A DNA stretch of 64,000 nt from Candidatus Omnitrophota bacterium (GTDB taxonomy: Bacteria > Omnitrophota > Gorgyraeia > Zapsychrales > Zapsychraceae): contig JAHFGL010000003.1 in the NCBI GenBank assembly GCA_023247445.1, positions 78,128-142,127 on the forward strand, read 5' to 3'. Position numbers and translations under genes: made by a program. This document shows positions 1,153-20,001 of this stretch, in pieces. Under the pieces are notes generated by a model. It was not told the origin of the DNA, did no database searches, and worked only from the letters and a program-made list of their open reading frames with translations. Position 1 is the first letter of the stretch, and every line of letters starts with the position of its first letter.

Positions 1153-1203
1153 CATGATCTTTTCTTAAACGTATAATCAGTCCAATTAAATCCTAAAAAT
1201 AAT

Positions 1204-3534
1204 ATGAAAAATATATTTCGACATCTTTTACCAATTATTCTCTGCGTTAGTTTAGTATCTCTTCCCAAGCATGTCTTTGCTCAAGTCACTGAAGAACCCG
1301 TTGTTGTAGAATCCGAAACAAAAATTGTTAAGGCCATTGATATCCAAGGGAATAAAACCATTAGCGTCGCTACAATTCTTGCAAAAATTAAAACTCGTGT
1401 AGGACAGGAATATCTGCAAACAGTTATCAGCGATGATCTTAAACGTTTGTATAACACGGGCTATTTTTCAGATGTTCGGGTTGACCGAAAAGATCAAGAC
1501 GGCGGACTCAAAGTCATTATCTATGTTGAAGAAAAATCTATTGTCGAGGAAATTACATTCTCTAAACTGCGTTATTATAATTCCAAGTCGTTACTTAAAA
1601 AATTAAAATCTCAAGTAGGAAAATTTTTAGATAATAAATCTTTGCAGGATGATATTCAGACGATTAAAGACCTTTATACTCAAAAAGGACTGACAAAGGT
1701 GGATGTGGATGTCGAGAAGTTTGTTGATGAGGTGACCAATAAGGTGAGTTTGCATTTTGTTGTTAAGGAAGGTAATAGAGTAAGAATCACAAAGATCAAT
1801 GTCTATGGCAATACAGCCTTTAATGACAAAAAGATTTTGAAGGTAATTAAAACCAGAGCCAAGTTTTTCATTAACTCAGGGTATCTTAAAGAAGATGTGT
1901 TGGATGAGGATAAAGAGCGCATTGTTTCTTTTTATGAGCAACAGGGATTTATTGATGCAAAAGTTGAATATACCGTTGATCCAACCTATAAAGGTAACGT
2001 TGAAATCAATTTTCAGATTGAGGAAGGTAAACGATATTCTGTGGGCAGCGTTATTTTAGAGGGAAATGAAATTGTTTCGCAGCGCGAAATTCAAAAAGCA
2101 ATGGAGAATATTAAGGAAGGCAATGTTTTTAGTCGCCAAAAATTGTCTGTTGATATTAGTAATGTCCGTACGTTATATTTTGATCGCGGTTATATCTTCG
2201 CTAATCTTCATGACTCCACATCGTTAGATCCAGAAACAGGTAAAGTTGAAGTCCAGATTAAGATAGAGGAAGGCGGCCCAGCTTATATTGAGAAAGTTAA
2301 AATTCAGGGGAATACCCGTACACGTGATATTGTTATTCGTCGAGAATTAAAGATGTTTCCTGGGGATCGTTTTGATGGACTTAAGTTGCGACGCAGTAAA
2401 GAAAAGTTAACCGATTTAGGATATTTTGAGGATGTTAATTTTGATATTGAGGATACAGCGACACCCGATCGAAAAGATTTAGTTGTTCAAGTTAAAGAGG
2501 CGAAAACAGGGACATTTAGTTTTGGTGGTGGTTTTAGTACGGTTGATCAGGTCATCGGTTTCGTCGAAGTTGAACAACGTAATTTTGATTTTGCCAATTG
2601 GCCTACCTTTACGGGTGGTGGTCAGCATCTTTCTTTGCGGGCTGAGACAGGGTCAACACGAAATAATGTCCAGTTAAGCTTTACTGAACCGTGGATTTTT
2701 GATCATCCTGTTTCTGGGGGATTTGATATTTATAAATCGTCACGTGAGCGTAGTTCGGATACGGGTTATGCCTATGATGAGGAGAGATTAGGCGGCGTTT
2801 TACGGTTTGGTAAACAATTTTCGGAATATATTGCTGGGGGAGTTTCTTATAAAAATGAAAGAGTAAAGATTGATAATTTTGAAGATAATGTTTCAGCTTC
2901 TTTAGCTGCTGAAGAGGGAACAAATACATTAAGTACGGTAGGTTTTAGTCTTACGCGAGACACGCGTGATAGTAAGATTAATCCGACAAAAGGACTTTAT
3001 CTCGAAGGAGATTTGGATGTTGCGGGTGGCGTTTTGGCCGGAGATAAAGATTTTGTCAGAACCCAGGGGAAGGCCAGTTATAATGTACCTCTCGCTTATA
3101 AATCAGTATTAGAAATGCGATTACGAGCAGGGGTTGTGAATGCTTACGGTGATTCCGATACGGTTCCTATTTTTGAGCGTTTTTATGCGGGTGGTGCTCG
3201 AACAATTCGCGGATATAACGAGCGCAAGGTTGGACCTTTAGATAGTGTAACGGGAGGGGCTATTGGAGGGGAAAGCATGGTCGTTGGAAATGTCGAATAC
3301 ACGATCCCCGTTATTGATTTTATTAAATTAGCGGCATTTTTTGATACTGGAAATGTTTGGGAAAATGCAGATGAATTAGGTCAAGGGGATATTAAATCAG
3401 GCACAGGTCTTGGTTTAAGAGTTAAAACACCTATTGGTCCTGTGAATCTTGATTATGGTTATCCGTTAAATGATGAACCAGGTGAAACCAGCAGAAGCGG
3501 CAAGTTTTATTTTAGTGTCAGTCGAGGATTTTAA
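1204..3534 (+). CDS. bamA: Outer membrane protein assembly factor BamA (Omp85 family).
   Basis: 776 aa with a signal peptide, repeated POTRA-like modules, a C-terminal beta-barrel and a terminal aromatic residue (..SRGF). It sits in the classic bamA-skp-lpxD context. Confidence 0.85.
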   Translation: MKNIFRHLLPIILCVSLVSLPKHVFAQVTEEPVVVESETKIVKAIDIQGNKTISVATILAKIKTRVGQEYLQTVISDDLKRLYNTGYFSDVRVDRKDQDGGLKVIIYVEEKSIVEEITFSKLRYYNSKSLLKKLKSQVGKFLDNKSLQDDIQTIKDLYTQKGLTKVDVDVEKFVDEVTNKVSLHFVVKEGNRVRITKINVYGNTAFNDKKILKVIKTRAKFFINSGYLKEDVLDEDKERIVSFYEQQGFIDAKVEYTVDPTYKGNVEINFQIEEGKRYSVGSVILEGNEIVSQREIQKAMENIKEGNVFSRQKLSVDISNVRTLYFDRGYIFANLHDSTSLDPETGKVEVQIKIEEGGPAYIEKVKIQGNTRTRDIVIRRELKMFPGDRFDGLKLRRSKEKLTDLGYFEDVNFDIEDTATPDRKDLVVQVKEAKTGTFSFGGGFSTVDQVIGFVEVEQRNFDFANWPTFTGGGQHLSLRAETGSTRNNVQLSFTEPWIFDHPVSGGFDIYKSSRERSSDTGYAYDEERLGGVLRFGKQFSEYIAGGVSYKNERVKIDNFEDNVSASLAAEEGTNTLSTVGFSLTRDTRDSKINPTKGLYLEGDLDVAGGVLAGDKDFVRTQGKASYNVPLAYKSVLEMRLRAGVVNAYGDSDTVPIFERFYAGGARTIRGYNERKVGPLDSVTGGAIGGESMVVGNVEYTIPVIDFIKLAAFFDTGNVWENADELGQGDIKSGTGLGLRVKTPIGPVNLDYGYPLNDEPGETSRSGKFYFSVSRGF

Positions 3535-3610
3535 AAAAATTTAACAATCAATAAATATTATTAGAATATTATTCTGATAATATGTCACATGAATAAAGGA
3601 GGAGAATATC

Positions 3611-4141
3611 ATGAGTAAGTTTCGAACATTAATGATTTCTATTTTTGCCGTCGTTTTATTAGCCAGCGTGTCTTATGCGGCTGATTTGAAGATAGGGTAT
3701 GTTGATTTAAGTCGAGTTTTTGATGAGTACCATAAGACTAAGGATTACGACAAAGTTTTAGAAGCAAAGAGTAAGGATTTTGAAAAAGAACGTAATGATA
3801 AGATTGAAAAAGTCAAAGAACAACAAGCCAAATTAGGTTTGTTAGCGGAAGATAAAAAAGCTCCTGTTGAACAAGAAATTGAAAAGTTGAAGACGGATTT
3901 ATTAGAATTTGACCGTCAGAAAAAAACAGACCTAACCAAAGAACGTAATGAGAAAATTCGTGAAATTCTTTTAGAGATCGAAAAAATTGTTAGCGGTTAT
4001 GCTGAAAAAGAAGGGTATACGCTCATTTTAAATGATCGTGTTTTGATTTATGGAGCTCAGACGCTTGATTTAACAGAAAAAGTGATGAAGCTCTTAAATG
4101 AAAATAAACCGGCCGACGACAAAAAAGCTGACAAGAAGTAA
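3611..4141 (+). CDS. skp: Periplasmic chaperone Skp/OmpH.
   Basis: 176 aa with a signal peptide and a coiled-coil K/E-rich body. It lies between bamA and lpxD as in most diderms. Confidence 0.75.
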   Translation: MSKFRTLMISIFAVVLLASVSYAADLKIGYVDLSRVFDEYHKTKDYDKVLEAKSKDFEKERNDKIEKVKEQQAKLGLLAEDKKAPVEQEIEKLKTDLLEFDRQKKTDLTKERNEKIREILLEIEKIVSGYAEKEGYTLILNDRVLIYGAQTLDLTEKVMKLLNENKPADDKKADKK

Positions 4142-4153
4142 TTTAGGTGTTGA

Positions 4154-5194
4154 ATGCGAAAAACCTTAGCCGAAATAGCAAAAGTCGTTAAAGGCGAGGT
4201 TGTCGGTGACAAAGCTATAGTCATCACTGGGCTAAGTGGTCTTGAGGAAGCTCAAGAAGGTGATTTAACATTTGTTATTAGTTCTAAATATTTTTCTTTA
4301 GCCCAGAAGACAAAAGCTTCTGCAATTTTAGCTCCTCGTAGCCTAAAAATTCCTGGCAAATCTATTATCTACACAGATAATCCTTCCTTTGCTTTTGGTG
4401 AAGTTGCCTCGATGATAACGGATGATGAAACTCATCGTATTAAGGGAATCCATTCCTCGGCTCTTATATCCAAAAATGTATCTCTTGGAAAAAATGTAGC
4501 CATTGGTCCATATGTCGTGATCGAAGAAGATACAGAGATCGGTGACAACACGATCATCTGTGCAGGGAGTTTTATTGGGCATCATGCAAAAATAGGCAAG
4601 GATTGTTTTATTTTTCCTCAGGTTATGATTCGCGATGGTTCGATGATTGGTGATCGCGTCATGATCCATAGTGGAACAGTGATTGGCTCTGATGGGTTTG
4701 GTTTTGAACAAGTTAAAGGTGTTCACAAGAAAATTCCGCAAATTGGTATTGTTGTTATTGAAGATGATGTTGAGATTGGTTCCAATGTCTGTATCGATCG
4801 AGCGCGGTTTAATAAAACAGTAATCGGCAAAGGAACAAAAATTGATAATTTAGTTCAGATTGGACACAATGTTGTTATTGGGGAAAATTGTATTATTATT
4901 TCGCAAGTTGGAATATCGGGAAGTACTATAATAGAAAAAAATTGTATTTTTGCCGGGCAAGTCGGAGTTGTCGGTCATATTAAAGTTGGCGAAGGGACTG
5001 TCGTTATGTCGCAATCTTGTCTGATGAAATCGACAACCCCCAACAGTAAGGTTTTTGGTTATCCTGCTAAGCCACACTTGCAAGCAAAGAAAATTAATGC
5101 TCATTTACAGCGGCTTCCCATTTATGTTAATAAAATTCAAGAGCTAGAAAAGAAAATTGAAATGCTAGAGTCGAAGTTTAAGGATAGGAAATAA
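4154..5194 (+). CDS. lpxD: UDP-3-O-acylglucosamine N-acyltransferase LpxD.
   Basis: 346 aa with left-handed beta-helix hexapeptide repeats (IGxxxxIG...). Its position is between skp and lpxC/fabZ. Confidence 0.85.
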
Positions 5195-6538
5195 ATGTCT
5201 TTATTGGGTGAGAAACAAAAAACAATTAAGGAAGAATGTCGTGTCTCGGGTGTTGGTCTACATACTGGGTCGTCGGTAAATGTTGTCTTTAAACCTTCCG
5301 CAGAGAACACGGGAATTAATTTTATCCGTGTTGATCTTCCATCGCGTCCCGTGATTAAGGCGGACCCTGCCCATGTTTTAGTCGAAACGCCTGTACCACG
5401 TTGCACGACCATTAGTTATGATGGGGCAATGATTCATACCGTTGAGCATTTAATGAGTGTTTTGCGTGGTTTGGGAATTACGAATTTATTGATTGAGTTA
5501 GATGGCAATGAGTTGCCTGGCTTAGATGGCAGCGGGGCTGATTATTTAAATTTATTTAAAAAAGCAGGGATTAAAGAACAAGAGGCTCAGGCCCCATTTT
5601 ATAGGATTCAAGAACCAATTGGCGTAGAGTTGAGCGGTTCCTCCATTTATGTTTTTCCCTCGGATGAATTAAAAATTTCGTATTTACTCGATTATCCGCA
5701 TAATATGTTACGGTCACAATATTTTAATATCACGATTGATCCAACAATTTTTGAACGTGAGATTGCTCCCTGTCGAACATTTTGTTTAGAGAGCGAGGCC
5801 AATGAGTTAAAAGCTGGAGGGTTGGGCAAAGGCGCTAATTTTAAGAACACTCTGGTTGTTGGCCCAGGAGGCGTTATCGACAATCAACTCCGCTTCCCTG
5901 ATGAATTTGCCCGTCATAAAATATTGGATTTTATTGGAGATTTGTATCTGCTGGGAATGCCGATTCGTGGACATGTGTTTGCCGTTAAAAGTGGACACGC
6001 TTTAAATCTGCGACTTTTAAAGAAAATTGTTGAGCAAAAAGAGAAATATTCGCGTAAAGGAATCGTGGTTGGATATGATATTGGTGATAAAAAAGAGATC
6101 GATATCAGTGATATCATGAAAATCTTACCGCATCGTTACCCGTTTTTGTTGGTGGATCGAGTCATTGAGATTGAAAAGGGGAAAAAGGGTATAGGGATTA
6201 AAAATGTTACAATTAATGACAGTTATTTTCAGGGGCATTTCCCAACGCGGCCCATTATGCCTGGGGTTTTGATGATCGAAGCGATGGCCCAGACCGGCGG
6301 GGTTGTTGTCTTGACGAATGAAGATCATCGTGGTAAAGTAGCGTTCTTTATGGCCACCGATAATGTGAAATTTCGTAAAGTGGTCACGCCGGGCGATCAA
6401 CTGATGATGGAGGTCGAAGTTGTGAAAGATAGAACTAAGATTGCCCAAGTTCATGCCGTAGGGAAAGTTAATGGTGAAGTTGTGGTTGAGGCCGATATGA
6501 TTTTTTCCTTCACTGATGCTTCTTATTTAGATTTATAA
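5195..6538 (+). CDS. lpxC/fabZ: Bifunctional UDP-3-O-acyl-GlcNAc deacetylase / 3-hydroxyacyl-ACP dehydratase (LpxC-FabZ fusion).
   Basis: 447 aa. The N-terminal ~280 aa carry an LpxC-like fold (GVGLHTG, HTVEHL). The C-terminal ~150 aa are a FabZ hotdog domain (LPHRYPFLLVDRV..., MPGVLMIEAMAQ). Confidence 0.85.
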   Translation: MSLLGEKQKTIKEECRVSGVGLHTGSSVNVVFKPSAENTGINFIRVDLPSRPVIKADPAHVLVETPVPRCTTISYDGAMIHTVEHLMSVLRGLGITNLLIELDGNELPGLDGSGADYLNLFKKAGIKEQEAQAPFYRIQEPIGVELSGSSIYVFPSDELKISYLLDYPHNMLRSQYFNITIDPTIFEREIAPCRTFCLESEANELKAGGLGKGANFKNTLVVGPGGVIDNQLRFPDEFARHKILDFIGDLYLLGMPIRGHVFAVKSGHALNLRLLKKIVEQKEKYSRKGIVVGYDIGDKKEIDISDIMKILPHRYPFLLVDRVIEIEKGKKGIGIKNVTINDSYFQGHFPTRPIMPGVLMIEAMAQTGGVVVLTNEDHRGKVAFFMATDNVKFRKVVTPGDQLMMEVEVVKDRTKIAQVHAVGKVNGEVVVEADMIFSFTDASYLDL

Positions 6539-6582
6539 AAAAGTTATTGTTTATCAATCGTCCTCGTTTAGAATAGGGTTAT

Positions 6583-7368
6583 ATGGAAAATTTAAATATT
6601 CATAAAACTGCTGTTGTTGATCGAGCCGCAAAATTATCTCCGGGCGTCAGCGTCGGCCCATATTCGATTATTGATGGTGGGGTTACAATTGGTGATAATG
6701 TCCGCATTGGGGCCCATTGTGTCATTACTGGACAAACAACCATTGGTCGCAATTGCAAAATTTATACTGGAGCCGTCATTGGCAGTGCCCCGCAAGATAG
6801 GAAATTTTCTGCGGATGACAACGTATTTTTAAATATTGGCGAAAATAATATTATTCGTGAATATGTGACAATGAATCCGGGAACGCTTGAGGGTGGTAGT
6901 AAGACAGTGGTTGGAAACGATAATTTAATTATGGCGTATTCACATGTCGCTCATGATTGTGTAATTGGTAACAACTGCGTGATGGCTAATGCGGCAACGC
7001 TCGCTGGGCATGTGACACTTGAAGATAGCGCGGTTGTTGGGGGATTAAGTGCTGTTCATCAATTTGTTCGCGTAGGTCGTTTATCGATTGTTGGTGGATG
7101 CTCAAAAGTTGTCCAGGATATTCCTCCATTCTCCATGAGTGATGGACATCCAGCCCAAGTGCATGGTTTAAACTTAGTTGGTTTAAGACGAGCCCACTTT
7201 ATGAAGGAAACAATTAAATCTCTTAAACACGCATTTAAAATATTATTTTTCTCCGGCCTTGCTAAAACCCATGCTTTAGAACAAATCGTCAGCGAAATTC
7301 CTTCATCTCCAGAGATTGAGCATCTTGTATTTTTTGCTAAAACTTCTGAACGAGGACTTTGCAGTTAA
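6583..7368 (+). CDS. lpxA: Acyl-ACP--UDP-GlcNAc O-acyltransferase LpxA.
   Basis: 261 aa with hexapeptide repeats and the LpxA C-terminal helical region. Confidence 0.85.
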   Translation: MENLNIHKTAVVDRAAKLSPGVSVGPYSIIDGGVTIGDNVRIGAHCVITGQTTIGRNCKIYTGAVIGSAPQDRKFSADDNVFLNIGENNIIREYVTMNPGTLEGGSKTVVGNDNLIMAYSHVAHDCVIGNNCVMANAATLAGHVTLEDSAVVGGLSAVHQFVRVGRLSIVGGCSKVVQDIPPFSMSDGHPAQVHGLNLVGLRRAHFMKETIKSLKHAFKILFFSGLAKTHALEQIVSEIPSSPEIEHLVFFAKTSERGLCS

Positions 7369-7407
7369 TCAGTTCTCGATACACAAATTAATAGCAAACA
7401 GCTAAGT

Positions 7408-8217
7408 ATGTCAAGTCAACTTCTCGGACTTATCGCCGGAAACGGCAAATTTCCCATTCTTTTCGCCCAGAAAGCAAAATCAAAAAATTACAAGATAGTT
7501 GCCGCAGGCATTAAAGGTGATACGTCATTTCTTTTGAAATTTTTTGTTGATGAATTGGTTTGGTTTAGAGTCGGGGAACTCAAAAAACTTTTTTCTTTTT
7601 TTAAAGAAAGAGGTGTTGGCAAGGTGATTATGGCTGGGCAAGTAAATCCTGATAATTTGTTTGAACAAAATGTTAAATTTGATGAAGAGTTTCAAAAATT
7701 ATTTGATGCTATCAAAGATCGTAAGGCTGATACAATTTTTAGCGCTATTGCCGACAAATTAAAACAACAAAACATGGAGCTCGTTGATTCAACCTTTTTA
7801 CTTGAGGATTATTTGGCGCCAAAGGGAACGTTAACCAAGCGCGGTCCAACGCTTAAGGAGTTAGAAGATATTGAATTTGGTCGAACAATCGCCAAAGCCA
7901 TGGGCGGCCTTGATGTTGGCCAGACCGTTGTAATTAAAGAGAAAGCGATTGTGGCGATCGAAGCGATGGAGGGAACGGATCGCACCATTGACCGCGGGGG
8001 GCGCATCGCCCGAACAGGCGCGGTTGTCGTTAAAATGAGTAAACCAAATCAAGACTTGCGTTTTGATATCCCTGTCATTGGCCCACGTACAATTGAAACC
8101 ATGATCAAGTCAAAAGCCCAGTGCCTTGCCATTGAAGCTGGAAAAACTTTAATTATTGAACGTCCAAAATGCCTTAAGCTTGCCAATCGATTTGGCATTT
8201 GCATTGTTTCTTCTTAG
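7408..8217 (+). CDS. lpxI: UDP-2,3-diacylglucosamine hydrolase LpxI (DUF1009 family).
   Basis: 269 aa. LGLIAGNGKFP at the N-terminus and MGGLDVGQTVV...IEAMEGTD motifs are typical of LpxI. It lies directly after lpxA. Confidence 0.6.
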   Translation: MSSQLLGLIAGNGKFPILFAQKAKSKNYKIVAAGIKGDTSFLLKFFVDELVWFRVGELKKLFSFFKERGVGKVIMAGQVNPDNLFEQNVKFDEEFQKLFDAIKDRKADTIFSAIADKLKQQNMELVDSTFLLEDYLAPKGTLTKRGPTLKELEDIEFGRTIAKAMGGLDVGQTVVIKEKAIVAIEAMEGTDRTIDRGGRIARTGAVVVKMSKPNQDLRFDIPVIGPRTIETMIKSKAQCLAIEAGKTLIIERPKCLKLANRFGICIVSS

Positions 8218-8262
8218 TCCTAAAAAAATCATTTCTCGCCGATAAAACGAGCCCTCTTTTGA

Positions 8263-8291
8263 TTGACACTACCTAGCTTTTTCTATATAAT
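8263..8291 (+). promoter_or_regulatory. Consensus sigma70-type promoter upstream of lysS.
   Basis: TTGACA (8263-8268), a 17-nt spacer, then TATAAT (8286-8291), about 45 nt ahead of the lysS start. Confidence 0.55.
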
Positions 8292-8337
8292 CAAGTTCAA
8301 TATTTTATAATAATATTATTAATTAAGGATAGTTTTC

Positions 8338-9810
8338 ATGGAAGTTGAAGAAATTAAAAGAGTTAGGTTAGAAAAATTACAGCATTTACGAGCGCAAGGA
8401 ATTTATCCGTATGGGGGGAAGTTTGACTTCACCACATCCATTGCGGATGCGCTCGCCAATTTTCAGGAAGGTAAAGAGATTATTGTAGCCGGCCGTATCC
8501 TGGCCAATCGCAGCCACGGGAAAGTTGTTTTTATTGATTTGATGGATCAAACCGGCAAGATGCAGCTTTTTATTAAGCATGAAGTTATTGGTGAGAAATT
8601 ATTTAATCTTTGTAAAGATTTAGATATCGGCGATATTATTGGCGTTAAGGGACCGCTTTTTACGACTAAGACTGGCCAGCAAAGTGTGCGTGTGGCTGAC
8701 TTTAAACTTCTTTCTAAGTCGCTGATGTGTATGCCAGAAAAATGGCATGGGTTAAAGGATGTCGAGATCCGTTATCGTCAACGTTATTTGGATATGATCG
8801 CCAATCCAGAGGTTCGTAATCTTTTTATTAAGCGAAGCAAGATTGTCAGTTCCATTCGAGCGTTTTTAGACAAGCAAGGATTTCTCGAGGTGGAAACCCC
8901 GATGCTTCAACCAATGGCGGGTGGTGCGCGCGGTAGACCGTTTAAGAGTTTGCATAATGCATATGATATGGAAGTTTTTTTACGTATCGCGCCAGAATTA
9001 TATTTGAAAAGACTTTTGGTTGGCGGCTTGGAACGTATTTATGAAATTAATCGTAACTTTCGTAATGAAGGAATCTCGACGCGCCATAATCCTGAATTTA
9101 CGATGATTGAGGTTTATCAGGCTTATGGTGATTTTGAAGACATGATGAAGTTAACCGAAGAGATGATCAGTGGTCTGGCCAAAGAAATCACAGGATCTTA
9201 CAAAGTTGCGTATCAAGGACATGAAATTGATTTTACACCCCCCTGGGAACGCCGCTCGTTTGCAAAAGTGATCAAAGATAAATTTGATATCAATCCCGAG
9301 GATGATGCCAAGACGATGCTTGATAAAGTTAAAGCACGTAAAGGGGTGAAGGTAAAGATTGATAAGCTGACGCGTTCGGCGGTTATGAAGATCGTTGAGG
9401 ATTTACTCGAAGAGGAAAAGATTATCAATCCAGTTTTCTTTACGGATTATTTTACATTTTTGTGTCCACTGGCGAAAACATTGCCGGACAATCCAGCAAT
9501 TTCACAACGGTTTGAATGTTTTATTGCGGGGATGGAAATTGGCAATGCTTATTCCGAGCTTAATGATCCGATTGAACAGAGAAAGCGTTTAGAAGAAGAT
9601 TTGGAAGATGATGTCGAAACAGGCAACCGTGTTATTGATGAAGATTTCTTACATTCGCTTGAATATGGCATGCCACCGGCGGGTGGTTTGGGAATTGGGA
9701 TTGATCGATTGGTTATGCTTCTAACAGATTCAGCCTCGATTCGTGATGTCATTTTATTTCCGCTTCTTAAACCTCTTCAAGAGAAGAAAGAAAAAGAAGA
9801 TAACGTTTAA
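8338..9810 (+). CDS. lysS: Lysyl-tRNA synthetase (class II).
   Basis: 490 aa with an N-terminal OB anticodon-binding domain and class II motifs (FRNEG, GGLGIGIDR). Confidence 0.9.
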   Translation: MEVEEIKRVRLEKLQHLRAQGIYPYGGKFDFTTSIADALANFQEGKEIIVAGRILANRSHGKVVFIDLMDQTGKMQLFIKHEVIGEKLFNLCKDLDIGDIIGVKGPLFTTKTGQQSVRVADFKLLSKSLMCMPEKWHGLKDVEIRYRQRYLDMIANPEVRNLFIKRSKIVSSIRAFLDKQGFLEVETPMLQPMAGGARGRPFKSLHNAYDMEVFLRIAPELYLKRLLVGGLERIYEINRNFRNEGISTRHNPEFTMIEVYQAYGDFEDMMKLTEEMISGLAKEITGSYKVAYQGHEIDFTPPWERRSFAKVIKDKFDINPEDDAKTMLDKVKARKGVKVKIDKLTRSAVMKIVEDLLEEEKIINPVFFTDYFTFLCPLAKTLPDNPAISQRFECFIAGMEIGNAYSELNDPIEQRKRLEEDLEDDVETGNRVIDEDFLHSLEYGMPPAGGLGIGIDRLVMLLTDSASIRDVILFPLLKPLQEKKEKEDNV

Positions 9811-9812
9811 TC

Positions 9813-11006
9813 ATGAATTACGAAAATTGGATTAGTTACCGATATTTGATCGCTGGCAAAGGACGGTTCCTTTCGTTTCTTAATTTTGTCTCGATTGCTG
9901 GCATTGCCATTGGCGTCACCGCACTTATTGTTGTCACAGGTGTTATGACGGGTTTTGGTAATAATCTGCGAGAAAAAATTATTGGCACAACGCCGCATTT
10001 GATGATCGAAAAAGAAACGGGTGTTCCAGATTATGAGAAAATTGTAAATCAGGTCAAATCGATCGATGGCGTTGCCGGCGTATCGACATATGTGCAAGGC
10101 AACATTTTCTTGGAAAATTCTGGGCAGGCGATGGGGCTTGTCATCCGTGGCATTGTTCCTCAGACAGAACGAGAAGTCACAAGAGTTGAACAATATTTAA
10201 CTAAGGGCAAGATCGATGATTTAGAAGGCGATCATATTATTGTTGGTAAAGAATTGGCACGGTATTTTGGTTATGAGGTTGGTGATAAGGTAACATTAAT
10301 TTCTCCCAGCGCTGGTTTATCAGGACAAAGTTGGCATTACCAGTTAACGATTTCAGGGATTTTCAGCACGGGCATGGCGGATTATGATATGAATTTAGTT
10401 TTGGTCAATTTTAAGAAAGCTCAAGAAATTTTTGGTTTGGCTCCCAATATGGCAACCGGCATTGGGGTCAAAGTAAATAATCCCTATCAAGCTAATGAGA
10501 TCAAAGAAAAATTTTACACCCTGTTAGGATACAGTTTTATCGTTAAGAGCTGGATTGATATTAATCGCAATTTGTTTGAGGCGCTCGCGCTAGAAAAATG
10601 GGGATTGTTTATTATCTTAACGCTCATGGTTTTGGTGGCGTCGTTTAATATTATCAGCACGCTGATTGTGACGGTCATGAGCAAAGTTCATGATATCGGG
10701 ATTTTGCAAGCGATCGGTGTTCCCAAGAGTTCTATCCGAAAGATTTTTACAAAGCAGGGAATTTTTATTGGCGGCTTAGGTATTTTTTGGGGACTCATCG
10801 GTGGATTTGGATTAAGTTATATTTTAAAAACATATATTCGTGTTCCCGCACAGATTTATTCCATTGATCATGTGCCAGTTGAGTTGCAACTCTCAGATAT
10901 TTTGATTACGATAACCGCCGCATTTTTAATTAGCTATGCGGCCAGCGTTTATCCAGCGGCGAAGGCAGCTAAACTTGAACCGGTAGAAGCGTTAAGATAC
11001 GAATAA
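9813..11006 (+). CDS. lolE: Lipoprotein-releasing system permease (LolC/E, FtsX-like).
   Basis: 397 aa with 4 TM helices, a large periplasmic loop and an FtsX-type C-terminal domain. It is followed by the lolD ATPase. Confidence 0.7.
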   Translation: MNYENWISYRYLIAGKGRFLSFLNFVSIAGIAIGVTALIVVTGVMTGFGNNLREKIIGTTPHLMIEKETGVPDYEKIVNQVKSIDGVAGVSTYVQGNIFLENSGQAMGLVIRGIVPQTEREVTRVEQYLTKGKIDDLEGDHIIVGKELARYFGYEVGDKVTLISPSAGLSGQSWHYQLTISGIFSTGMADYDMNLVLVNFKKAQEIFGLAPNMATGIGVKVNNPYQANEIKEKFYTLLGYSFIVKSWIDINRNLFEALALEKWGLFIILTLMVLVASFNIISTLIVTVMSKVHDIGILQAIGVPKSSIRKIFTKQGIFIGGLGIFWGLIGGFGLSYILKTYIRVPAQIYSIDHVPVELQLSDILITITAAFLISYAASVYPAAKAAKLEPVEALRYE

Positions 11007-11015
11007 GATTTTATC

Positions 11016-11095
11016 GTCATTCTGAGGAGCGAAATCGACGAAGAATCTCAAAATACTTAAGAGCTCTGAGATCCTTCGCATTCGCTCAGGATGAC
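11016..11095. repeat. Imperfect palindromic element (GTCATyCTGAG...CTCAGGATGAC family), intergenic copy.
   Basis: Left arm GTCATTCTGAGGAGCGAAATCGACGAAGAATCTC, an 18-nt loop, then right arm GAGATCCTTCGCATTCGCTCAGGATGAC. It is related to the 68-bp elements at 53038 and 54312 in the opposite orientation. Its terminal ATGAC supplies the lolD start codon. Confidence 0.8.
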
Positions 11096-11777
11096 AGCCT
11101 TTACTATGATCCTTGAAGCGACTAATATTCATAAATTTTATGTTCAGTCTGGCCAAACTTTAGAAATATTAAAGGGAATTGACTTAAAAGTTGGTGATGG
11201 AGAATTTGTGGCCATCGTTGGGCCATCGGGAGCTGGAAAGTCAACACTGTTACATATTTTGGGCGGATTGGATAAGCCCAGCGAAGGACAGGTTCTTTTT
11301 CAAGGGCAAGATGTTTATCGACTTAAAGATAAAGAACGGGCAAAGGTTCGTAACATTAGTATAGGATTTGTGTTTCAGTTTTATCATTTACTTGCAGAGT
11401 TTACCGCCCTGGAAAATGTTTTACTGCCCGCGCTTATTAAAGAAGATCGCAAGAATAGCAAACATTTTGAGGGTAAAGGAACGGCGCTGTTAGATCAAGT
11501 CGGATTAAAGAGTCGAGCGACGCATAAACCCAATCAATTGTCAGGTGGGGAGCAGCAACGAGTGGCTATCGCCAGAGCCTTAATTAATGATCCCAAAATT
11601 ATTTTTTGCGATGAGCCGACGGGTAATCTTGATTCCGCAACGGGTAAAGAGATCATTAGTTTATTGCAGCAACTGAATCAAAAAAATAAACAAGCCTTGG
11701 TAATTGTAACCCATGATGAGAATATTGCGAAGTTAGCACAGCGTAAAGTTTATATTAAAGATGGGAAGTTAGTCTAA
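11091..11777 (+). CDS. lolD: Lipoprotein-releasing system ATP-binding protein LolD.
   Basis: 228 aa ABC ATPase with Walker [10 protein letters not shown], signature LSGGEQQR and Walker B IIFCDEPT. Confidence 0.8.
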
Positions 11778-11794
11778 TTGTAAAAAGAGAGGCG

Positions 11795-12661
11795 ATGATG
11801 AAAATTTATCTCAATGGAAAATTTGTGGAGAAAAAAGACGCAAAGGTATCCGTGTTTGATCACGGTTTTCTTTATGGCGACGGCGCTTTCGAAGGAATCC
11901 GTGCGTATAATCGATTAGTTTTTAAATTAGAGGAGCACGTGGAACGACTTTATGAAACCAGTCATACGCTAATGATTGATCTTAAGATGACCAGAAAAGA
12001 AATGATGAAGGCCATCGTCGATACGCTTAAGGCCAATAATCTAACCGATGCGTATATCCGTGTTGTGGTTAGCCGTGGCGAGGGCGATCTTGGTTTAGAT
12101 CCACGCAAGTGTTTTGGAAATCCAAATGTGATAATTATTGCAGATAAAATTACGCTTTATCCAAAGGAATTATATAATAGGGGCATGGAAATTATCACCG
12201 TGCCTACGGTGCGCAATAATCCTGAAGCGATTAATCCACAGCTAAAAAGTCTTAACTATCTTAATAATATTTTAGCCAAGATCGAGGCGAATAATTCTGG
12301 ATTTAGCGAAGCGATTATGCTCGATCATCAAGGTTATGTGGCGGAGTGCACGGGGGATAACATTTTTATTATCAAAAATAAGGTGTTATCAACACCCAGT
12401 CAGGGAAGGTTAAAAGGTATCACCCGTGAGACCGTTTTAGAATTAGCTAAGAAAAATAAAATTGAAACAAAAGAATGCCTGATGACACGTCATGAGGTTT
12501 ATATTTCTGATGAATGTTTTTTAACGGGAACGGCGGCTGAGATTATTCCGGTCGTGAAGGTTGATGGTCGTATTATCGGCAGCGGTAAGCCAGGGCCAAT
12601 GACAACTAAGTTAATTGAGATGTTTCATAAAGTCACAAGGACAGATGGAACTAAGTATTAA
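11795..12661 (+). CDS. ilvE: Class IV (fold type IV) aminotransferase, branched-chain amino acid or D-amino acid aminotransferase.
   Basis: 288 aa with GxGxFEGxRxY near the N-terminus (GDGAFEGIRAY), typical of the IlvE/Dat family. Confidence 0.7.
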   Translation: MMKIYLNGKFVEKKDAKVSVFDHGFLYGDGAFEGIRAYNRLVFKLEEHVERLYETSHTLMIDLKMTRKEMMKAIVDTLKANNLTDAYIRVVVSRGEGDLGLDPRKCFGNPNVIIIADKITLYPKELYNRGMEIITVPTVRNNPEAINPQLKSLNYLNNILAKIEANNSGFSEAIMLDHQGYVAECTGDNIFIIKNKVLSTPSQGRLKGITRETVLELAKKNKIETKECLMTRHEVYISDECFLTGTAAEIIPVVKVDGRIIGSGKPGPMTTKLIEMFHKVTRTDGTKY

Positions 12662-12682
12662 TTTTTAAGTAAAGGTAAAATA

Positions 12683-13183
12683 ATGCAGTGTGATATTTGC
12701 GCTAAGAAAAAAGCAACCGTCCATTTGACAGAGATTGTTGATGAACAAATGTCTGAGATGCATCTGTGTGAGGAATGTGCTCGTCAGAAAAGTTCACAAA
12801 TGGAACAGCAGTTTGGACTGGCGGATTTATTGGCGGGTTTGGGAGACTTTGGTAAACAACTCAAAGATGCCGAGAAAGTCAATATTCAGTGTTCTAACTG
12901 CGCCATGAGCTATGACGATTTTAGGAAATTTGGCCGTTTGGGTTGCAATAAGTGTTATGATTCTTTTAAAACACATTTATCAACGTTGCTGAAAAAAATT
13001 CATGGATCAAATCAGCATTTTGGTAAATCACCGGTGAGAATTCCACAAGAGGAACGAAGAAAGATTGAAAGTCTGCAAGATTTAAAGAATCATTTGATGC
13101 AGGCCATTCAAATGGAAGATTTTGAAAAGGCCGCACAGCTACGTGATAAGATTCGTGAAATCGAAGAAAAAGGTAGTGTTTAA
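12683..13183 (+). CDS. mcsA: McsA-like protein arginine kinase activator (two Zn fingers plus a UVR domain).
   Basis: 166 aa with CxxC...CxxC twice and a C-terminal UVR motif (EDFEKAAQLRDKIREIEEK). It lies directly upstream of mcsB and clpC. Confidence 0.7.
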   Translation: MQCDICAKKKATVHLTEIVDEQMSEMHLCEECARQKSSQMEQQFGLADLLAGLGDFGKQLKDAEKVNIQCSNCAMSYDDFRKFGRLGCNKCYDSFKTHLSTLLKKIHGSNQHFGKSPVRIPQEERRKIESLQDLKNHLMQAIQMEDFEKAAQLRDKIREIEEKGSV

Positions 13184-13185
13184 TT

Positions 13186-14238
13186 ATGAAATTAGACGAT
13201 TTTATTCATAACACTGGGCAATGGTTAAAAGGAGCGGGAGAACATGCAAACATTGTTATGTCTTCTCGGGTAAGGCTCGCGCGTAACTTATCACTCAAAC
13301 CATTTCCTAACAAAGCCAGAAAAAAAGATTTAATGGAAGTTTTTTCTGCTGTTGAGGCGGCTATGCAACAAATCGAATTCTTTAAGAAGGTCGTTTTTCT
13401 TAGGATTTGGGAGTTGGATAGTATTGATAAACAATTTTTGATTGAACGCCATTTAATGAGCCATGAGCATGCCACAAGTCCGGAGGGAAAGGCTTTAGTT
13501 GTTTCGGATGAAGAAGTTCTTTCCGTTATGATTAATGAAGAGGATCATCTGCGTATTCAAGTGATGCAGTCGGGACTTAATTTGGATGCGAGCTGGAAGA
13601 TGGCTAATTCCATTGATGATGCGTTATCAGAAAAATTAGATTTTGCTTATTCGATTAATTGGGGATATTTGACAGCATGTCCGACGAATACTGGAACAGC
13701 TTTACGTGGATCGGTAATGTTGCATCTGCCAGCCTTGGTTATGACCAAACAAATTGGTAAAGTTTTAACGGCCGTATCGAAACTTAGTTTTGCCTCCCGC
13801 GGCTTTTATGGAGAAGGAACGCAGGCCAGCGGAAATTTTTATCAAATATCTAATCAAGTATCGATGGGCCATTCTGAAACAGATGTCATTCAAAATATTA
13901 ATGGCCTTATTCGTCAGGTTATCGAGCAGGAAGAACAAGCCCGGCAAGCACTCCTCGTGCAGAATCGTCCTATGCTCGAAGATAAAATTTATCGGTCACT
14001 GGGAATTTTAAAAACATCGCGAATTATTTCTAGTCAAGAAACTGTTGAGCTGTTGTCTATGGTTCGCTTAGGAATTGATCTTGATATTGCGAAAGATGTT
14101 AGTCGTAAAGCGATCAATGAACTTTTTATTATGATTCAACCGGCCCATTTGCAAAAAATTGAAGGCAAGAAGTTGACATCGACGGAAAGAGATGCCAAAA
14201 GAGCTAGTCTTATTCGACAAAAATTAGGAGGGTTCTAA
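13186..14238 (+). CDS. mcsB: Protein arginine kinase McsB (phosphagen/guanidino kinase family).
   Basis: 350 aa carrying the guanidino-kinase active-site region [13 protein letters not shown]. Confidence 0.8.
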
Positions 14239-14239
14239 G

Positions 14240-16657
14240 ATGTTCAATCGATTTACAGAACGAGCCAGAAAAGTTATTGTTTATGCTAAAGAAGAAGCAC
14301 GACGATTTAATCATGATTACATTGGCACCGAGCATCTTTTGTTGGGTTTGGTCCGTGAAGGAGAAGGTGTCGCGGCCGCTGTCTTACAAAAACTCGGATT
14401 AGATTTGGAAACAATTCGTATTGAAGTTGAGAAGTTGGTTCAACCGGGACCGCAGACGCAAGTGTTGGGAGATATTCCTTTTACACCGCGATCTAAAAAA
14501 GCACTAGAACTCTCGGCGGAAGAGGCGAGAGCTCTTGGCCACAACTACATCGGCACCGAGCATCTTCTTTTAGGATTAGTTAAAGAAGGTGAAGGGATGG
14601 CGTATCGCGTGTTATTAAACTTGGGACTTGATTTAGGTAAACTGCGTAACGAAGTTATGGAACTCTTAGGTTCGGGAATTCCTGGATATAATGCGCAGGA
14701 GCCAACCAAATCTGATAAAACGCCAGCCATCGATGCCTATGGACGCAATTTAAATAAATTAGCCAAGGACGGCAAACTTGATCCAGTCATCGGGCGCGAG
14801 GAAGAGATTCAACGCATCGTTCAGATTTTAAGTCGTCGAACAAAGAATAATCCAGTTCTTCTAGGTGAGGCTGGTGTTGGAAAAACAGCGATCGTTGAAG
14901 GATTGGCACAACTGATTGTCAAAGGTGATGTGCCTGAAGTCTTGCGCGACAAAACCATTGTCGTTTTGGATTTGGCGCTTATGATCGCCGGAACAAAATA
15001 TCGCGGACAATTTGAAGAACGTATTAAAGCCATCATGGATGAGATTAGACGTTCTGGAAAAGTTATTCTTTTTATCGATGAGTTGCATACATTAGTCGGA
15101 GCTGGTGCCGCGGAAGGGGCGATTGACGCCGCCAATATTTTAAAGCCAGCCTTGGCTCGAGGAGAGATTCAGTGTATTGGGGCAACCACACTTGATGAAT
15201 ATCGTAAGCATATTGAAAAAGATGCGGCGCTCGAACGTCGATTTCAAACCATTATGATTGAGCCGCCATCGGTTGAAGAGGCGATTCAAATTTTAAAAGG
15301 TCTTCGTGATAAATATGAAGCGCATCATCGTGTTAAATTTTCTGATGAGGCGCTCGATGCCGCGGTCAAATTATCGGATCGGTATATTTCTGGACGAGCT
15401 TTGCCGGATAAGGCTGTTGATATCTTAGATGAGGCTGGCGCTCGGGCTCGTCTTCAAGCGATGGTCATGCCGCCAGAAGTTAAAGGTTTAGAAGTTGAGA
15501 TTGAACAGCTAAAGAAAGAAAAAGAAAGCTATATCAAAAGTCAGGATTTTGAAAAAGCAGCCAAGATGCGTGATTTAGAACGTGATGCGCGCGATAAGTT
15601 AGAAGCGATCCGAAGCGCGTGGACTCAGGAACGTGATAAGGCGACGCTCGTCTTAGGTTATGAAGAGATTGCTAAAGTTGTTTCGCAGTGGACAAAGATT
15701 CCACTCGTTCGTTTGGAGCAAAAAGAGACAGATAAGTTAATGAAGATGGAAGATCATTTAAAGAAAATGGTCGTTGGCCAAGATGAGGCCATCAGCGCTA
15801 TTTCTCGCGCTGTGCGTCGATCACGTGCGGGGATTAAGAATCCTAAACGGCCCATTGGTTCTTTTATATTTTTAGGACCCACGGGCGTTGGAAAAACGCT
15901 TTTAGCTCAGGTGCTCGCTGAATTTATGTTTGGCGACCGTGAAGCGCTCATTCAAATTGATATGTCGGAATATATGGATAAATTTAATGTCTCGCGACTA
16001 ATTGGTGCGCCACCAGGTTATGTCGGGTATGAAGAGGGCGGACAATTGACCGAGAAAGTTCGACGTAAACCTTACTCAGTTATTTTACTTGATGAAATCG
16101 AAAAGGCTCACATGGATGTGTTTAATTTACTTCTTCAAGTTTTTGAAGAGGGGAGATTAACGGATAGCTTGGGGCGCAAAATTGATTTTCGTAATACCAT
16201 CATCTTGATGACATCTAACGTCGGTGCCGAGATGATCCGTAAACAAGGATCATTGGGTTTTGTTGCTCCTAAGGAAGATGTAACACATGATGAAATGAAA
16301 GTTCGTCTCCTTGATGAAGTAAAGAGAACGTTTAAACCGGAGTTTCTAAACCGTGTAGATGACATCATTGTCTTTAGATCTTTAACTAAAGAAAATTTAA
16401 GAAATATTGTCCAGCTTGAAATCAGCTCTGTGGCTAATCGCTTAAAAGAAAAAGGGATTGAGGTTGAACTTTCCCCATCAGCGCTGGATTTGCTCATCGA
16501 GAAAGGTTTTGATCCTGTCTATGGGGCGCGACCATTAAAGAGGACAATTCAAAGACTGCTCGAAGATCCTTTGGCCGAAGATATTATTTCTGGGCAATTT
16601 AAGGAAGGTATAAAAATTAACGTCGATCGAAAAGACGAAGTCTTGGCCTTTTCTTAA
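14240..16657 (+). CDS. clpC: ATP-dependent Clp protease ATP-binding subunit ClpC.
   Basis: 805 aa with two N-terminal Clp_N repeats, two AAA+ modules ([16 protein letters not shown]) and a middle UVR motif. Confidence 0.9.
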
Positions 16658-16666
16658 AAAGCAATC

Positions 16667-17641
16667 ATGAAAAGTAGATTTCTTCTACTCTGTGCGCTTG
16701 TCATTTTGCTTTGGCCTAAATTATGTTTAGCCAAAAGCACTTTCCCTTTTCACGGACAGCTTGATCTTGCCAACCGTAAGCTAGATTTAACCGTCCAGGT
16801 TAATGACCAAACCGTTTTTATAACAAACATCAATAAATTATCCGATAATGATTATCATCTTCGTTTAAAATTCGAACATCTTAAGGCGCTAGCCTTTGAT
16901 TTGTCGAGCGAGATGGAAGGATCTCTTCGTTTTCATCAAATTGAAGACGGGATAAGCCAATTTATTTCTGGAAAAATATGGAGTCAATACACCCTTGTTG
17001 ACCGAAAACCCATACGAGAACTTCTAGGACAGTTTGAGCTTCGGCAGAAGAAGTTAATCATTCCCTCGATATCATTCGGAGATATTAAATGTAGTGGTTC
17101 GGTTGATTTTAATTCTCCCTACAAAATAGATTTGGTTTTTGATCTTACGGCTATTGAGATGGAAGATTTTTTGGCTTTTTGGTCCAATAGTAGAGAATTT
17201 AGTGCCGCAGGAACTGTTGCTGGAAAAATCAAAGTTTCAGGAGCACTTGATCATTTACTTCTTAAGGGCAATTTGGCGAGCTTTAATGGTTTTGTCGACA
17301 AGTTGCAGTACGACAGTTTTTTCTTAAATATGGAAGGCATTTATCCGCATCTACAAATTGCTTCCTCCACAGTTTCTCAGTCGGATGGCCCCAGTTATAC
17401 TTTAGATGGCCCGTTTAATCTTAGCGATCAACAAAGTTTTAAAAAACAAATTGAAAATTTGACGATAGCGCCCTTAATCAATGATTCTGGATCTCGAGTA
17501 GAATGGACCTTTAAGCGTCTAAAGGATGAAAGATCAGGAACAACAGAAATTAAATATCTTCTGCGTAAAGATAATGCCAGTGGAGATGCGTTTAGTAAAG
17601 AATCGGATATGTTAGGTGTTGAGCGAAGGATGGAGTTTTAA
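16667..17641 (+). CDS. Hypothetical secreted protein.
   Basis: 324 aa with a signal peptide and no recognisable motif. It sits upstream of mlaE. Confidence 0.4.
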   Translation: MKSRFLLLCALVILLWPKLCLAKSTFPFHGQLDLANRKLDLTVQVNDQTVFITNINKLSDNDYHLRLKFEHLKALAFDLSSEMEGSLRFHQIEDGISQFISGKIWSQYTLVDRKPIRELLGQFELRQKKLIIPSISFGDIKCSGSVDFNSPYKIDLVFDLTAIEMEDFLAFWSNSREFSAAGTVAGKIKVSGALDHLLLKGNLASFNGFVDKLQYDSFFLNMEGIYPHLQIASSTVSQSDGPSYTLDGPFNLSDQQSFKKQIENLTIAPLINDSGSRVEWTFKRLKDERSGTTEIKYLLRKDNASGDAFSKESDMLGVERRMEF

Positions 17642-17644
17642 ATT

Positions 17645-18433
17645 ATGTTGGCCAATGTTAGTTATAAACTCGGAAATTTACTTTTTGGATTAATCAATTA
17701 TGTTGGTAAGTTGACGCTTTTATTAAGCCAGACGATAGGACTCATTTTTGTCCGCCCAATTAAAAGAGAGCGCATTTTAATTCAAGCTAAACGTGTTGGC
17801 CCGGGGAGTTTTTTTATTTCTGGATTAGTTGCGCTTTTTATTGGGATGATCATGGCTCTTCAGATGGCTTCTCAAATGATTAGGTTAGGGGCAGAGATTT
17901 ATATTCCGAGTGTTGTCGGTGTTTCTATGACTCGAGAATTAGCGCCTGTCTTAACCGCGCTTATTGTAGCTGGACGTGTAGGGGCGGGTATTGCTGCTGA
18001 AATTGGATCGATGGCCGTGACTGAACAAGTGGATGCCTTGCGCGCATTTGCTGTTAATCCCGTTAAATTCTTAGTTGTTCCTCGATTTTTGGCCTTAGTA
18101 ATTATGGTGCCATGTCTAACGATTTTTGCTGATTTGGTTGGGATTTTTGGTGGATTTATTATCTGTGTTTTTAAATTAGGCATGCATGCGTCGATGTATT
18201 TAAATATGATTGCGCAGGCTGTGGATATCCCAGATATTTTAACGGGACTTTTAAAAGCTGTTGTCTTTGCGGGGATTATTGCTTTGGTCGGTTGCCATGA
18301 AGGGCTTCATGTTAAAGGAGGCGCGGAAGGTGTTGGACGAGCCACAACGTTTTCGGTGGTTATTTCATTTATCCTTATCATCATGGCGGATTGTTTGTTT
18401 ACGACACTGTTTTATTTTATTTTTAAATTATGA
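17645..18433 (+). CDS. mlaE: Phospholipid ABC transporter permease MlaE.
   Basis: 262 aa multi-TM permease of the MlaE/TTG2B family. It is followed by the ATPase and the MCE-domain protein. Confidence 0.8.
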   Translation: MLANVSYKLGNLLFGLINYVGKLTLLLSQTIGLIFVRPIKRERILIQAKRVGPGSFFISGLVALFIGMIMALQMASQMIRLGAEIYIPSVVGVSMTRELAPVLTALIVAGRVGAGIAAEIGSMAVTEQVDALRAFAVNPVKFLVVPRFLALVIMVPCLTIFADLVGIFGGFIICVFKLGMHASMYLNMIAQAVDIPDILTGLLKAVVFAGIIALVGCHEGLHVKGGAEGVGRATTFSVVISFILIIMADCLFTTLFYFIFKL

Positions 18434-19203
18434 TTCACATTTCTCATCTATATAAATCTTTTGCTAGAGATTCTGTTCTTACCGATTTTAATTTAACCGT
18501 TAAGGCCGGTGAGACGAAGGTTATCATTGGCCGTTCCGGGGCGGGAAAAAGTGTGCTGCTCAAATGTATTATGGGATTAGTTCGACCGGATTCAGGATCA
18601 ATTAAGATTAATGGGGTTGAAGTCACGGATATTGCAGAGAAAGAATACAATAAAATCCGTATGGATATTGGTTTGCTTTTTCAAGGCGGAGCGCTTTTTG
18701 ATTCGATGAGTGTGGCGGACAATGTGGCTTTTGTTCTTAACGAATTTAAGAATCTGGACAAAAAAACAGTTCAAAAGAAAGTTGAAGAAGCCTTGGCTTT
18801 AGTCGGGTTGCAGGGGGTTGAGGATTTAAATCCGTCACAATTAAGCGGGGGGATGAAAAAGCGTGTTAGTTTAGCACGCATCCTTTGCATGGAGCCGCAA
18901 ATGATTTTTTATGATGAACCCACCAGTGAAGTCGACCCCATCATGGCGGATGCGATTAATAATTTAATCATCGATTTGCGCAATAAACTCAAAGTGACGT
19001 CGATTGTGGTGACTCATGATATGAACTCAGCTTTTAAGGTCGCTGACTCGATTGCAATGGTTTATCATGGCCAGGTGATTGCCGAAGGCACACCTGATGA
19101 GATTCGGCACACCAAACACCCGGTTGTAAAACAATTTATTTACGGGGAGGCGCATGGCCCCATTACTGATGATGAAAATCTAATTTTTGGGCATGTGAAA
19201 TAA
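18430..19203 (+). CDS. mlaF: Phospholipid ABC transporter ATP-binding protein MlaF.
   Basis: 257 aa ABC ATPase with GRSGAGKS, LSGGMKKR and IFYDEPTS. Confidence 0.8.
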   Translation: MIHISHLYKSFARDSVLTDFNLTVKAGETKVIIGRSGAGKSVLLKCIMGLVRPDSGSIKINGVEVTDIAEKEYNKIRMDIGLLFQGGALFDSMSVADNVAFVLNEFKNLDKKTVQKKVEEALALVGLQGVEDLNPSQLSGGMKKRVSLARILCMEPQMIFYDEPTSEVDPIMADAINNLIIDLRNKLKVTSIVVTHDMNSAFKVADSIAMVYHGQVIAEGTPDEIRHTKHPVVKQFIYGEAHGPITDDENLIFGHVK

Positions 19204-19217
19204 CAGAAAGGGACGAT

Positions 19218-19928: not shown

Positions 19929-19957
19929 TTATTACCAAAGGAAATTATTCTAAGGTA

Positions 19958-20001
19958 TTTACACTACAAAAGTCGCCATGTGGCGACTTTTGTAGTGTAA
20001 A
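19958..20001. terminator. Perfect 21-bp-stem palindrome downstream of mlaD.
   Basis: TTTACACTACAAAAGTCGCCA-TG-TGGCGACTTTTGTAGTGTAAA. No T-run follows, so Rho-independent function is uncertain. It overlaps the left copy of a direct repeat. Confidence 0.5.

Follow-up and report, generated by a model that had tools for sequence, protein, structure and literature searches.

Palindromic repeats with the anatomy of CGTC-tagged REP dimers in the lolE-lolD spacer and in the E2 and E3 linkers of an Omnitrophota genome

MITEs such as the Correia elements, Nezha and the QMITEs of Coxiella have target-site duplications and a parent IS. REPINs are GTAG-tagged REP doublets of Pseudomonas and enterobacteria, and the associated RAYT is a Y1 transposase whose gene is flanked by the repeats. 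REPs of E. coli stabilise upstream mRNA. Palindromes may also be translated: the Rickettsia palindromic element RPE-1, of 100-150 bp, was reportedly found by Ogata et al. in 2000 to lie in frame within protein-coding genes. Other REPs carry a CGTC tag; one of them, the CGTC-1 REP dRS3 of Neisseria, serves as an integration target. We know of no transposase for CGTC repeats since 2013.

The CGTC superfamily was described by Di Nocera, De Gregorio and Rocco (2013, BMC Genomics 14:522; PMC3733652). According to that paper, these REPs have a CGTC or TGTC tag, a stem of 8-9 positions that starts with A-T and T-A pairs, a loop of 4-5 nt, variable in some families, and a short tail with the consensus CCA. 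They occur mostly as inverted dimers in five phyla, have no dedicated transposase, and include Neisseria dRS3 as well as RPE-4 and RPE-6 of Rickettsia (PMC3733652). The supplement gives in-frame copies in Rickettsia and Sphingomonads, among them copies in PDH E1 and E2 of Sphingopyxis alaskensis (PMC3733652). Here we compare these systems with three palindromes of an Omnitrophota genome; the organism is assigned to Candidatus Omnitrophota by the names that homologous proteins bear in public sources.

Three inverted dimers of hairpin units

The window, that is the whole 64-kb stretch of DNA analysed here, contains three imperfect palindromes with GTCAT...ATGAC ends at 11016-11095, 53038-53105 and 54312-54379 (copies 1, 2 and 3), as the initial annotation had reported. 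GTCATYCTGAG with at most one mismatch has seven matches against 1.28 expected, namely the six element termini and one unrelated site. A structure-aware scan (GTCAT-NNN-GA...GA-N'N'N'-AT, with complementary triplets) recovered exactly six arms, hence three dimers, in the 64 kb, and a looser version of it gave 0.1 matches per shuffled window. The termini are shared as had been described, except that one end of copies 2 and 3 is CTTCAGGATGAC and not CTCAGGATGAC. The extent had been drawn slightly too short, as one more base is conserved at each end (C/T before GTC, A/G after GAC); with these bases the dimers occupy 11015-11096 (copy 1, tag bases C...A), 53037-53106 (copy 2) and 54311-54380 (copy 3).

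Each half of the element is a hairpin unit of its own, 27-37 nt in size overall and about 28-36 nt in the three copies here, with two units inverted per copy. The unit can be written as (C/T)GTC - AT(Y)CT - GA - G...C apex - GA - AG(R)AT - CTC: an unpaired YGTC tag is followed by the 5-bp stem AT(Y)CT/AG(R)AT, two tandem G.A mismatches, the apex and a CTC tail. Pairing of AT(Y)CT-GA-GC with GC-GA-AG(R)AT spans nine positions, two of which are G.A mismatches. The apical stem-loop is closed by G...C and ranges from a GCGNAGC mini-hairpin to more than 30 nt, so the loop either has 3-4 nt (GNA, GGCA) or gives way to a variable stem-loop. In the dimer the units stand tail to tail with their tags outward; each arm is self-complementary, and pairing between the arms is imperfect.

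The long arm of copy 1, of the T/A type (GTC-ATTCT-GA-GGAGCGAAATCGAC-GA-AGAAT-CTC), lies on the plus strand at 11016-11049 and the short arm, of the C/G type (GTC-ATCCT-GA-GCGAATGC-GA-AGGAT-CTC), on the minus strand at 11068-11095. The 18-nt spacer between them (11050-11067) corresponds to the long loop that had been noticed in this copy. Copies 2 and 3 have spacers of only 4 nt, located at 53066-53069 between a short arm (53038-53065) and a long arm (53070-53105) in copy 2, and at 54340-54343 between a short arm (54312-54339) and a long arm (54344-54379) in copy 3. Over 73 nt these two copies are identical but for 1 nt, copy 1 is related to them but has diverged, and all three have the same orientation with respect to the surrounding genes. 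Three of the six window arms begin with CGTC and three with TGTC. The apex of the copy 1 long arm is the GGAGCGAAAGCGAC module, found in 55 metagenome stretches, with a private G>T change; in GGAGCGAAAGCGAC the same module of G-C, G.A, A.G, G-C and C-G pairs recurs around a GAAA loop, and its closing pair alternates between A...T, G...C and none.

Covariation was strong in both collections of related sequences. The Y and R positions within an arm agreed in 151 of 155 arms among the matches listed from viral contigs, where the search pattern had left both positions free, and in 186 of 188 dimer arms among the matches listed from genome contigs, where the scan selected by the central core only and the outer half of the arm was unspecified. 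The 283 distinct apical segments were self-complementary far above shuffles, with at least three contiguous pairs in 54% as against 3%. Calculated as DNA with nearest-neighbour energies, single arms reach about -3.7 kcal/mol for three of them and none beats shuffles, and the predicted DNA fold of the copy 1 long arm differs from the unit hairpin. For the whole dimer the energies are -24 kcal/mol (DNA) and -38 kcal/mol (RNA). Since single arms are weak by predicted energy, the unit hairpin rests on covariation.

Among the matches listed from genomes, 115 dimers had their tags outward and 7 inward, and 17 were in tandem. Most units of the viral set, which was picked by a single arm, were single. 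The base before GTC was T in 94 and C in 75 of 182 arms, and the CTC tail was present in 178 of the 182, again among the matches listed. Hetero dimers of a T/A and a C/G arm accounted for 75 of 94 dimers among the matches listed; copy 1 is of this kind, and copies 2 and 3 belong to the rarer C/G + C/G kind. We also observed that the two ends of a dimer tend to agree in their tag base (loci L121-L239; T...A in 38, C...G in 32, mixed in few, among the matches listed), the three window copies all being of the rare mixed C...A type. This agreement may mean that dimers descend as wholes, that the two ends form a pair, or that TA or CG targets are preferred. At one locus (L138, 98-212) an 89-bp segment with a whole dimer and its flank is duplicated in tandem.

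Judged by their sequence, the three loci fit REP-type, CGTC-tagged inverted dimers, a known kind of element. As far as the 2013 description goes, the likeness extends to the YGTC tag of the window and genome arms, a stem of nine positions here whose first pairs are A-T and T-A, the predominance of inverted dimers, the spread over several phyla, the in-frame copies in genes, and copies that adjoin no dedicated transposase. By the same text, the units described here appear to differ in two conserved tandem G.A mismatches within the stem, in a GNA mini-hairpin or long hypervariable stem-loop instead of a fixed loop of 4-5 nt, in the tail (CTC against CCA) and in hosts beyond the five reported phyla (Omnitrophota, Patescibacteria, Planctomycetia, Chloroflexi, Acidobacteria and tailed phages). 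We compared tail, G.A pairs and apex with four CGTC families as far as their encoded peptides reveal them: the peptides listed for CGTC-1, -3 and -4 are unlike those encoded here (VILSEAKDL, RHPE..., ...FAQDD), and CGTC-2 (for example RHSELVSGS of Sulfurovum) shares at most the first 11 nt.

Copies 2 and 3 in the interdomain linkers of E2 and E3

Downstream of aceE, on the minus strand, lie the genes of the dihydrolipoyllysine acetyltransferase (PDH E2; 53364-54641), which carries copy 3, and of a dihydrolipoyl dehydrogenase with an N-terminal lipoyl domain (E3; 51574-53361), which carries copy 2. Both copies are translated in the same reading frame to RHPEGAKATEGSPKRSFAAAQDDK, directly after the lipoyl domain, a point absent from the initial annotation. 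In E3 the 72 coding nucleotides (53035-53106, minus strand) fall in the linker between the lipoyl and FAD domains, and in E2 (54309-54380, minus strand) the same 24-residue peptide stands in the linker between the lipoyl and E3-binding domains. The copies are not assembly artefacts: E2 with the peptide is recorded by both NCBI and ENA, and an identical 425-aa E2, adjoining a 595-aa E3, is encoded on a 25.9-kb ENA contig that was assembled separately.

None of the 19 closest E2 orthologues (65-81% identity) has the peptide; their linkers are of the ordinary Ala/Pro/Lys kind and of similar length. A syntenic relative (L241) encodes E1, E2 and a lipoyl-bearing E3 and has the element in neither linker, indicating that the E3 lipoyl domain is older than the element. 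As for the in-frame elements of Rickettsia, the copies lie in conserved genes, the frame is kept, and orthologues without the element exist. The likeness to RPE-1 consists in an in-frame palindrome that adds a peptide to the protein where the structure permits it; the sequence is unrelated, and the insert here is 72 nt long and sits in naturally disordered linkers between domains. The open frame of the palindrome is read there as a charged, Ala-rich stretch of 24 residues that the linkers tolerate, and insertion would have replaced linker sequence with little change in linker length.

About one in seven genome copies among the matches listed lies within a long open frame, for instance a copy in frame in a 2230-aa Omnitrophota protein with DnaJ and PPDK_N domains (L194). 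These data demonstrate that spacers tolerate the element, and that disordered protein linkers do so where its frame is open. A search of the doubled peptide against the protein database gave no match at E up to 10 and 19 candidates that share words with it. We also observed that a unit, GTCATTCTGAGGAGCGCCATTTACACGAAGAATCTC, is kept in frame as EILRVNGAPQNDG in the P22-like coat protein gene of related phage contigs, about 533 nt into a 1197-nt ORF (L011, L015, L019, L042, L045, L050, L063 and L105).

Copies 2 and 3 might owe their likeness to common history at this locus, either because they were inherited with a duplicated lipoyl domain or because one linker converted the other. They share orientation and frame, they stand about 10 codons after homologous lipoyl domains, and the identical block reaches 4 nt (AAAA) beyond the element. 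Inheritance by lipoyl-domain duplication was rejected, since L241 has a lipoyl-bearing E3 and yet lacks the element in both linkers. Gene conversion requires flanking homology, yet E2 and E3 are about 70% identical in the DNA of their lipoyl domains, the flanks are identical to that degree or unalignable, and the block CGTCAT...GATGACAAAA differs by one base between the two genes, with similarity ending at the block edges, exactly at the element. Four of the six frames of copy 2 are without stop, so a common frame has a chance of roughly 1 in 4 under selection. We therefore regard a dependent origin of the two copies as unlikely, with a small probability for a transfer between the linkers in view of their similar positions and common frame.

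Several features of the neighbourhood were noticed in passing. The N-terminal lipoyl domain of E3 is closely related to that of E2, and likewise in L241 (5192-6961), where an additional 264-aa gene, absent here and with no Pfam match on record, lies between E2 and E3. At 49794-51134 (plus strand) Maf and an M48 peptidase form one continuous ORF of 446 aa, in which the M48 portion retains a signal peptide and a lipobox (...LLLMINIMGC) of its own; in L241 they are two genes with a 4-nt overlap, so the ORF is either a recent fusion by stop-codon loss or a frame from which two products are made. A tmRNA gene is found directly downstream of smpB, and one c-di-GMP-I riboswitch and one tRNA are also present (entries for smpB and the RNA genes at 60238-60665, 62668-62754 and 59683-60138 on the plus strand and 58581-58663 on the minus strand). 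At 21004-23149 (plus strand) two small ORFs that match nothing in Pfam lie behind a gene for an AAA_14/DUF4143 ATPase, and no link to the repeat was seen.

The lolE-lolD spacer and the start of lolD

Copy 1 is located between a lolC/E permease gene (9813-11006, plus strand) and lolD, in a part of the window (1-20000) that forms an outer-membrane biogenesis region with OmpH/Skp, LpxA-like, LpxI, lysS, lolCE-lolD and MlaE/F/D. The spacer between lolE and lolD is 99 nt here as against 2 and 15 nt in two relatives, whose LolD proteins are 77% and 80% identical. The ATGAC at the end of the element had been proposed to supply the start codon of lolD. This ATG (11091), within the short arm of copy 1, is indeed in frame with lolD; the start, in contrast, is most likely ATG 11106, 10 nt past the element, which gives a gene at 11106-11777 (plus strand) and a protein of 223 aa that begins with MILEATN. 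An identical public protein has exactly this length and start, the closest LolD homologues have 222-224 aa and begin with MI(L/V)(E/Q)A, the LolD profile match starts at residue 7 of the long ORF, and relatives without the element already have the MI(L/V)(E/Q)A start. Database start, homologue lengths, profile and the spacers of relatives together suggest that the ancestral start lies 10 nt beyond the end of the element and is not supplied by it; ATG 11091 may be used occasionally.

Folding predictions, which had been proposed for each copy, gave strong RNA structures for the three elements, -29 to -39 kcal/mol with z from -4.2 to -7.1. Copy 1 thus sets a stable hairpin before lolD: its palindrome would fold back on itself and add an RNA hairpin of -29 kcal/mol within lolE-lolD, at the base of which the lolE stop and the lolD start would remain about 20 nt apart. 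That the insert folds on itself, and so keeps stop and start close, may be the reason why it is tolerated.

Such folds, the precedent of the E. coli REPs that stabilise upstream mRNA, and the position of copy 1 within an operon, 10 nt before a start codon, raise the question whether the element is a functional RNA hairpin, selected at each site as an mRNA stabiliser, attenuator or translational regulator, for instance of the LolE:LolD ratio. Single units flanked by co-directional genes were in sense orientation in 41 cases and antisense in 30, and this lack of strand bias relative to transcription argues against a primary role as RNA. Copies lie inside coding linkers, relatives lack the element at the same sites, and no T-run and no terminator-like or promoter-like site was found for copy 1. 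Rfam gave no match at the gathering score, and relaxing the threshold to E up to 10 added only hairpin hits of the kind expected by chance. We thus consider an RNA function as the origin of the repeat improbable. On inspection, hammerhead-like and kink-turn readings of CUGAG...CGAAG were rejected, as the core nucleotides and the bulge are absent.

Boundaries, dispersal and mobilisation

Among the matches listed, the only conserved base outside the GTC ends was the one adjoining GTC, and in 90 of 112 dimers this base at one end was complementary to that at the other. Positions outside it were random, and the boundaries are sharp. Direct repeats of 2-8 nt at the boundaries occurred at chance level in the 112 non-redundant dimers listed. 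In related tailed-phage contigs with portal, capsid and adaptor genes, the unit was present at the same junction in some contigs only (for example 6 of 12), and relatives of the Omnitrophota genome lack the element at all three sites (the lolE-lolD spacer, the E2 linker and the E3 linker). Together these data demonstrate that the element is a dispersed hairpin repeat with sharp ends that is gained and lost between relatives with no target duplication, and that the copies of this genome entered three permissive sites after its lineage split from the nearest sequenced relatives. Within a single genome the apices of the copies differ strongly from each other, unlike those of a recently bursting transposon.

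The family extends far beyond the window, with many more imperfect palindromes sharing these termini and thousands of related units in unrelated assemblies. The half-unit pattern was found in at least 120 stretches of viral contigs and the tight-dimer core in at least 119 stretches of species-representative genomes. Going by record titles, the hosts among the genome matches listed include Omnitrophota, Planctomycetia, several Patescibacteria, Chloroflexi including Ktedonobacter, Acidobacteria, Nitrospirota, Nitrospinota, Deltaproteobacteria, Rickettsiales, Micavibrio, Elusimicrobia and some Clostridia. Of 124 cores among the matches listed, 106 came with one or both outer arms complete, and some genomes contributed several loci. 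Copy 2 had no BLAST match in cultured phages and plasmids, a weak result with so short a query, and a text search of the literature with the element sequence returned only primers in unrelated papers.

An outer frame (tag, AT pairs, G.A pairs and CTC tail) that is conserved across many phyla around a free apex would also be expected of a repeat kept through binding, either because a host protein recognises it or because other mobile DNA lands there, and the integration target dRS3 belongs to the same superfamily. A binding site, in contrast, leaves unexplained the in-frame copies in essential enzymes and the gain and loss between close relatives, and no integrated element abuts the copies in the window. 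We find it unlikely that the repeat originated in this way; a binding role is more likely a secondary use than the origin.

A classical MITE, that is a deletion derivative of an IS moved as double-stranded DNA by the cut-and-paste action of a parent transposase, is highly improbable: the elements are short, palindromic and dispersed with identical termini, but the 112 dimers listed show no target-site duplication, single half-units with their own internal pairing are common, the apices are hypervariable within a conserved frame, and neither the window nor the surroundings of the 119 genome copies listed yielded a parent IS or transposase. The initial annotation is thus borne out in the palindromic, dispersed character and the common termini. 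Its term MITE-like is unsupported, as the dimers listed show no target-site duplication and no related transposase was found nearby, and REP-type (CGTC-tagged) dimer is the better name; moreover, each half is a hairpin unit with internal covariation, which is the anatomy of a REP and not of an IS-derived terminal inverted repeat. The general likeness to MITEs (small, dispersed, non-coding, with inverted-repeat ends, sometimes co-transcribed or translated) remains, whereas the duplication and the parent IS that mark them were not found in the 112 dimers or in the window and fetched flanks.

The reading that we prefer, with a probability of roughly 70%, is that of a small, selfish and non-autonomous REP-type repeat that spread as hairpin single-stranded DNA, inserted here after the split from the relatives and left near-neutral copies. 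It probably spread as single-stranded hairpin DNA; a HUH/Y1 transposase acting in trans (RAYT or IS200/IS605-like) would recognise the hairpin together with the 5' tetranucleotide, insertion would leave no target duplication, and the effects of the copies here would be near-neutral. We infer the action of such a single-strand transposase by analogy with GTAG REPs and RAYTs, as no transposase was found: the 30 mid-size ORFs of the window were housekeeping genes or had no Pfam match, with no transposase domain among them, no neighbour protein recurred in the stretches of about 8 kb around the 119 genome copies listed, and clustering of neighbouring genes recovered only the shared genes of three related tailed-phage groups. 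The likeness to REPINs consists in two inverted hairpins that act as one unit, a conserved 5' tetranucleotide beside the hairpin, high copy number per genome and no target duplication. The tag, in contrast, is YGTC and not GTAG, no RAYT gene flanked by units was seen, and the sequence frame is common to phyla, whereas REPIN families are lineage-specific. That no linked transposase was found in the window or next to the copies listed agrees with Di Nocera et al. 2013 (PMC3733652).

For this genome, the analysis corrects the start of lolD, gives a reason for the 99 nt between two operon genes that are closely packed, 2 and 15 nt apart, in the relatives examined, and accounts for an odd 24-residue peptide common to E2 and E3 that could be misread as a conserved motif or domain. 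It provides a clean and datable case of a palindromic repeat absorbed into protein linkers, and it extends the known range of the CGTC-type hairpin frame to candidate phyla and to phages. For annotation in general, the repeats are a source of numerous spurious small ORFs (VILSEAKDL, ...FAQDD, ...LRMT) and of false N-terminal extensions. The internal covariation, the preference for hetero dimers and the conserved G.A frame are handles for finding the mobilising enzyme. Beyond this, and as a tentative and rather unlikely proposal, one conserved hairpin module may persist nearly unchanged in more than 10 bacterial phyla and in tailed phages, preferentially as hetero dimers. If so, a widespread trans-acting enzyme or host factor would read the exact frame of the unit, and CGTC repeats would all belong to one pan-bacterial mobile system instead of forming many lineage-specific REP families.
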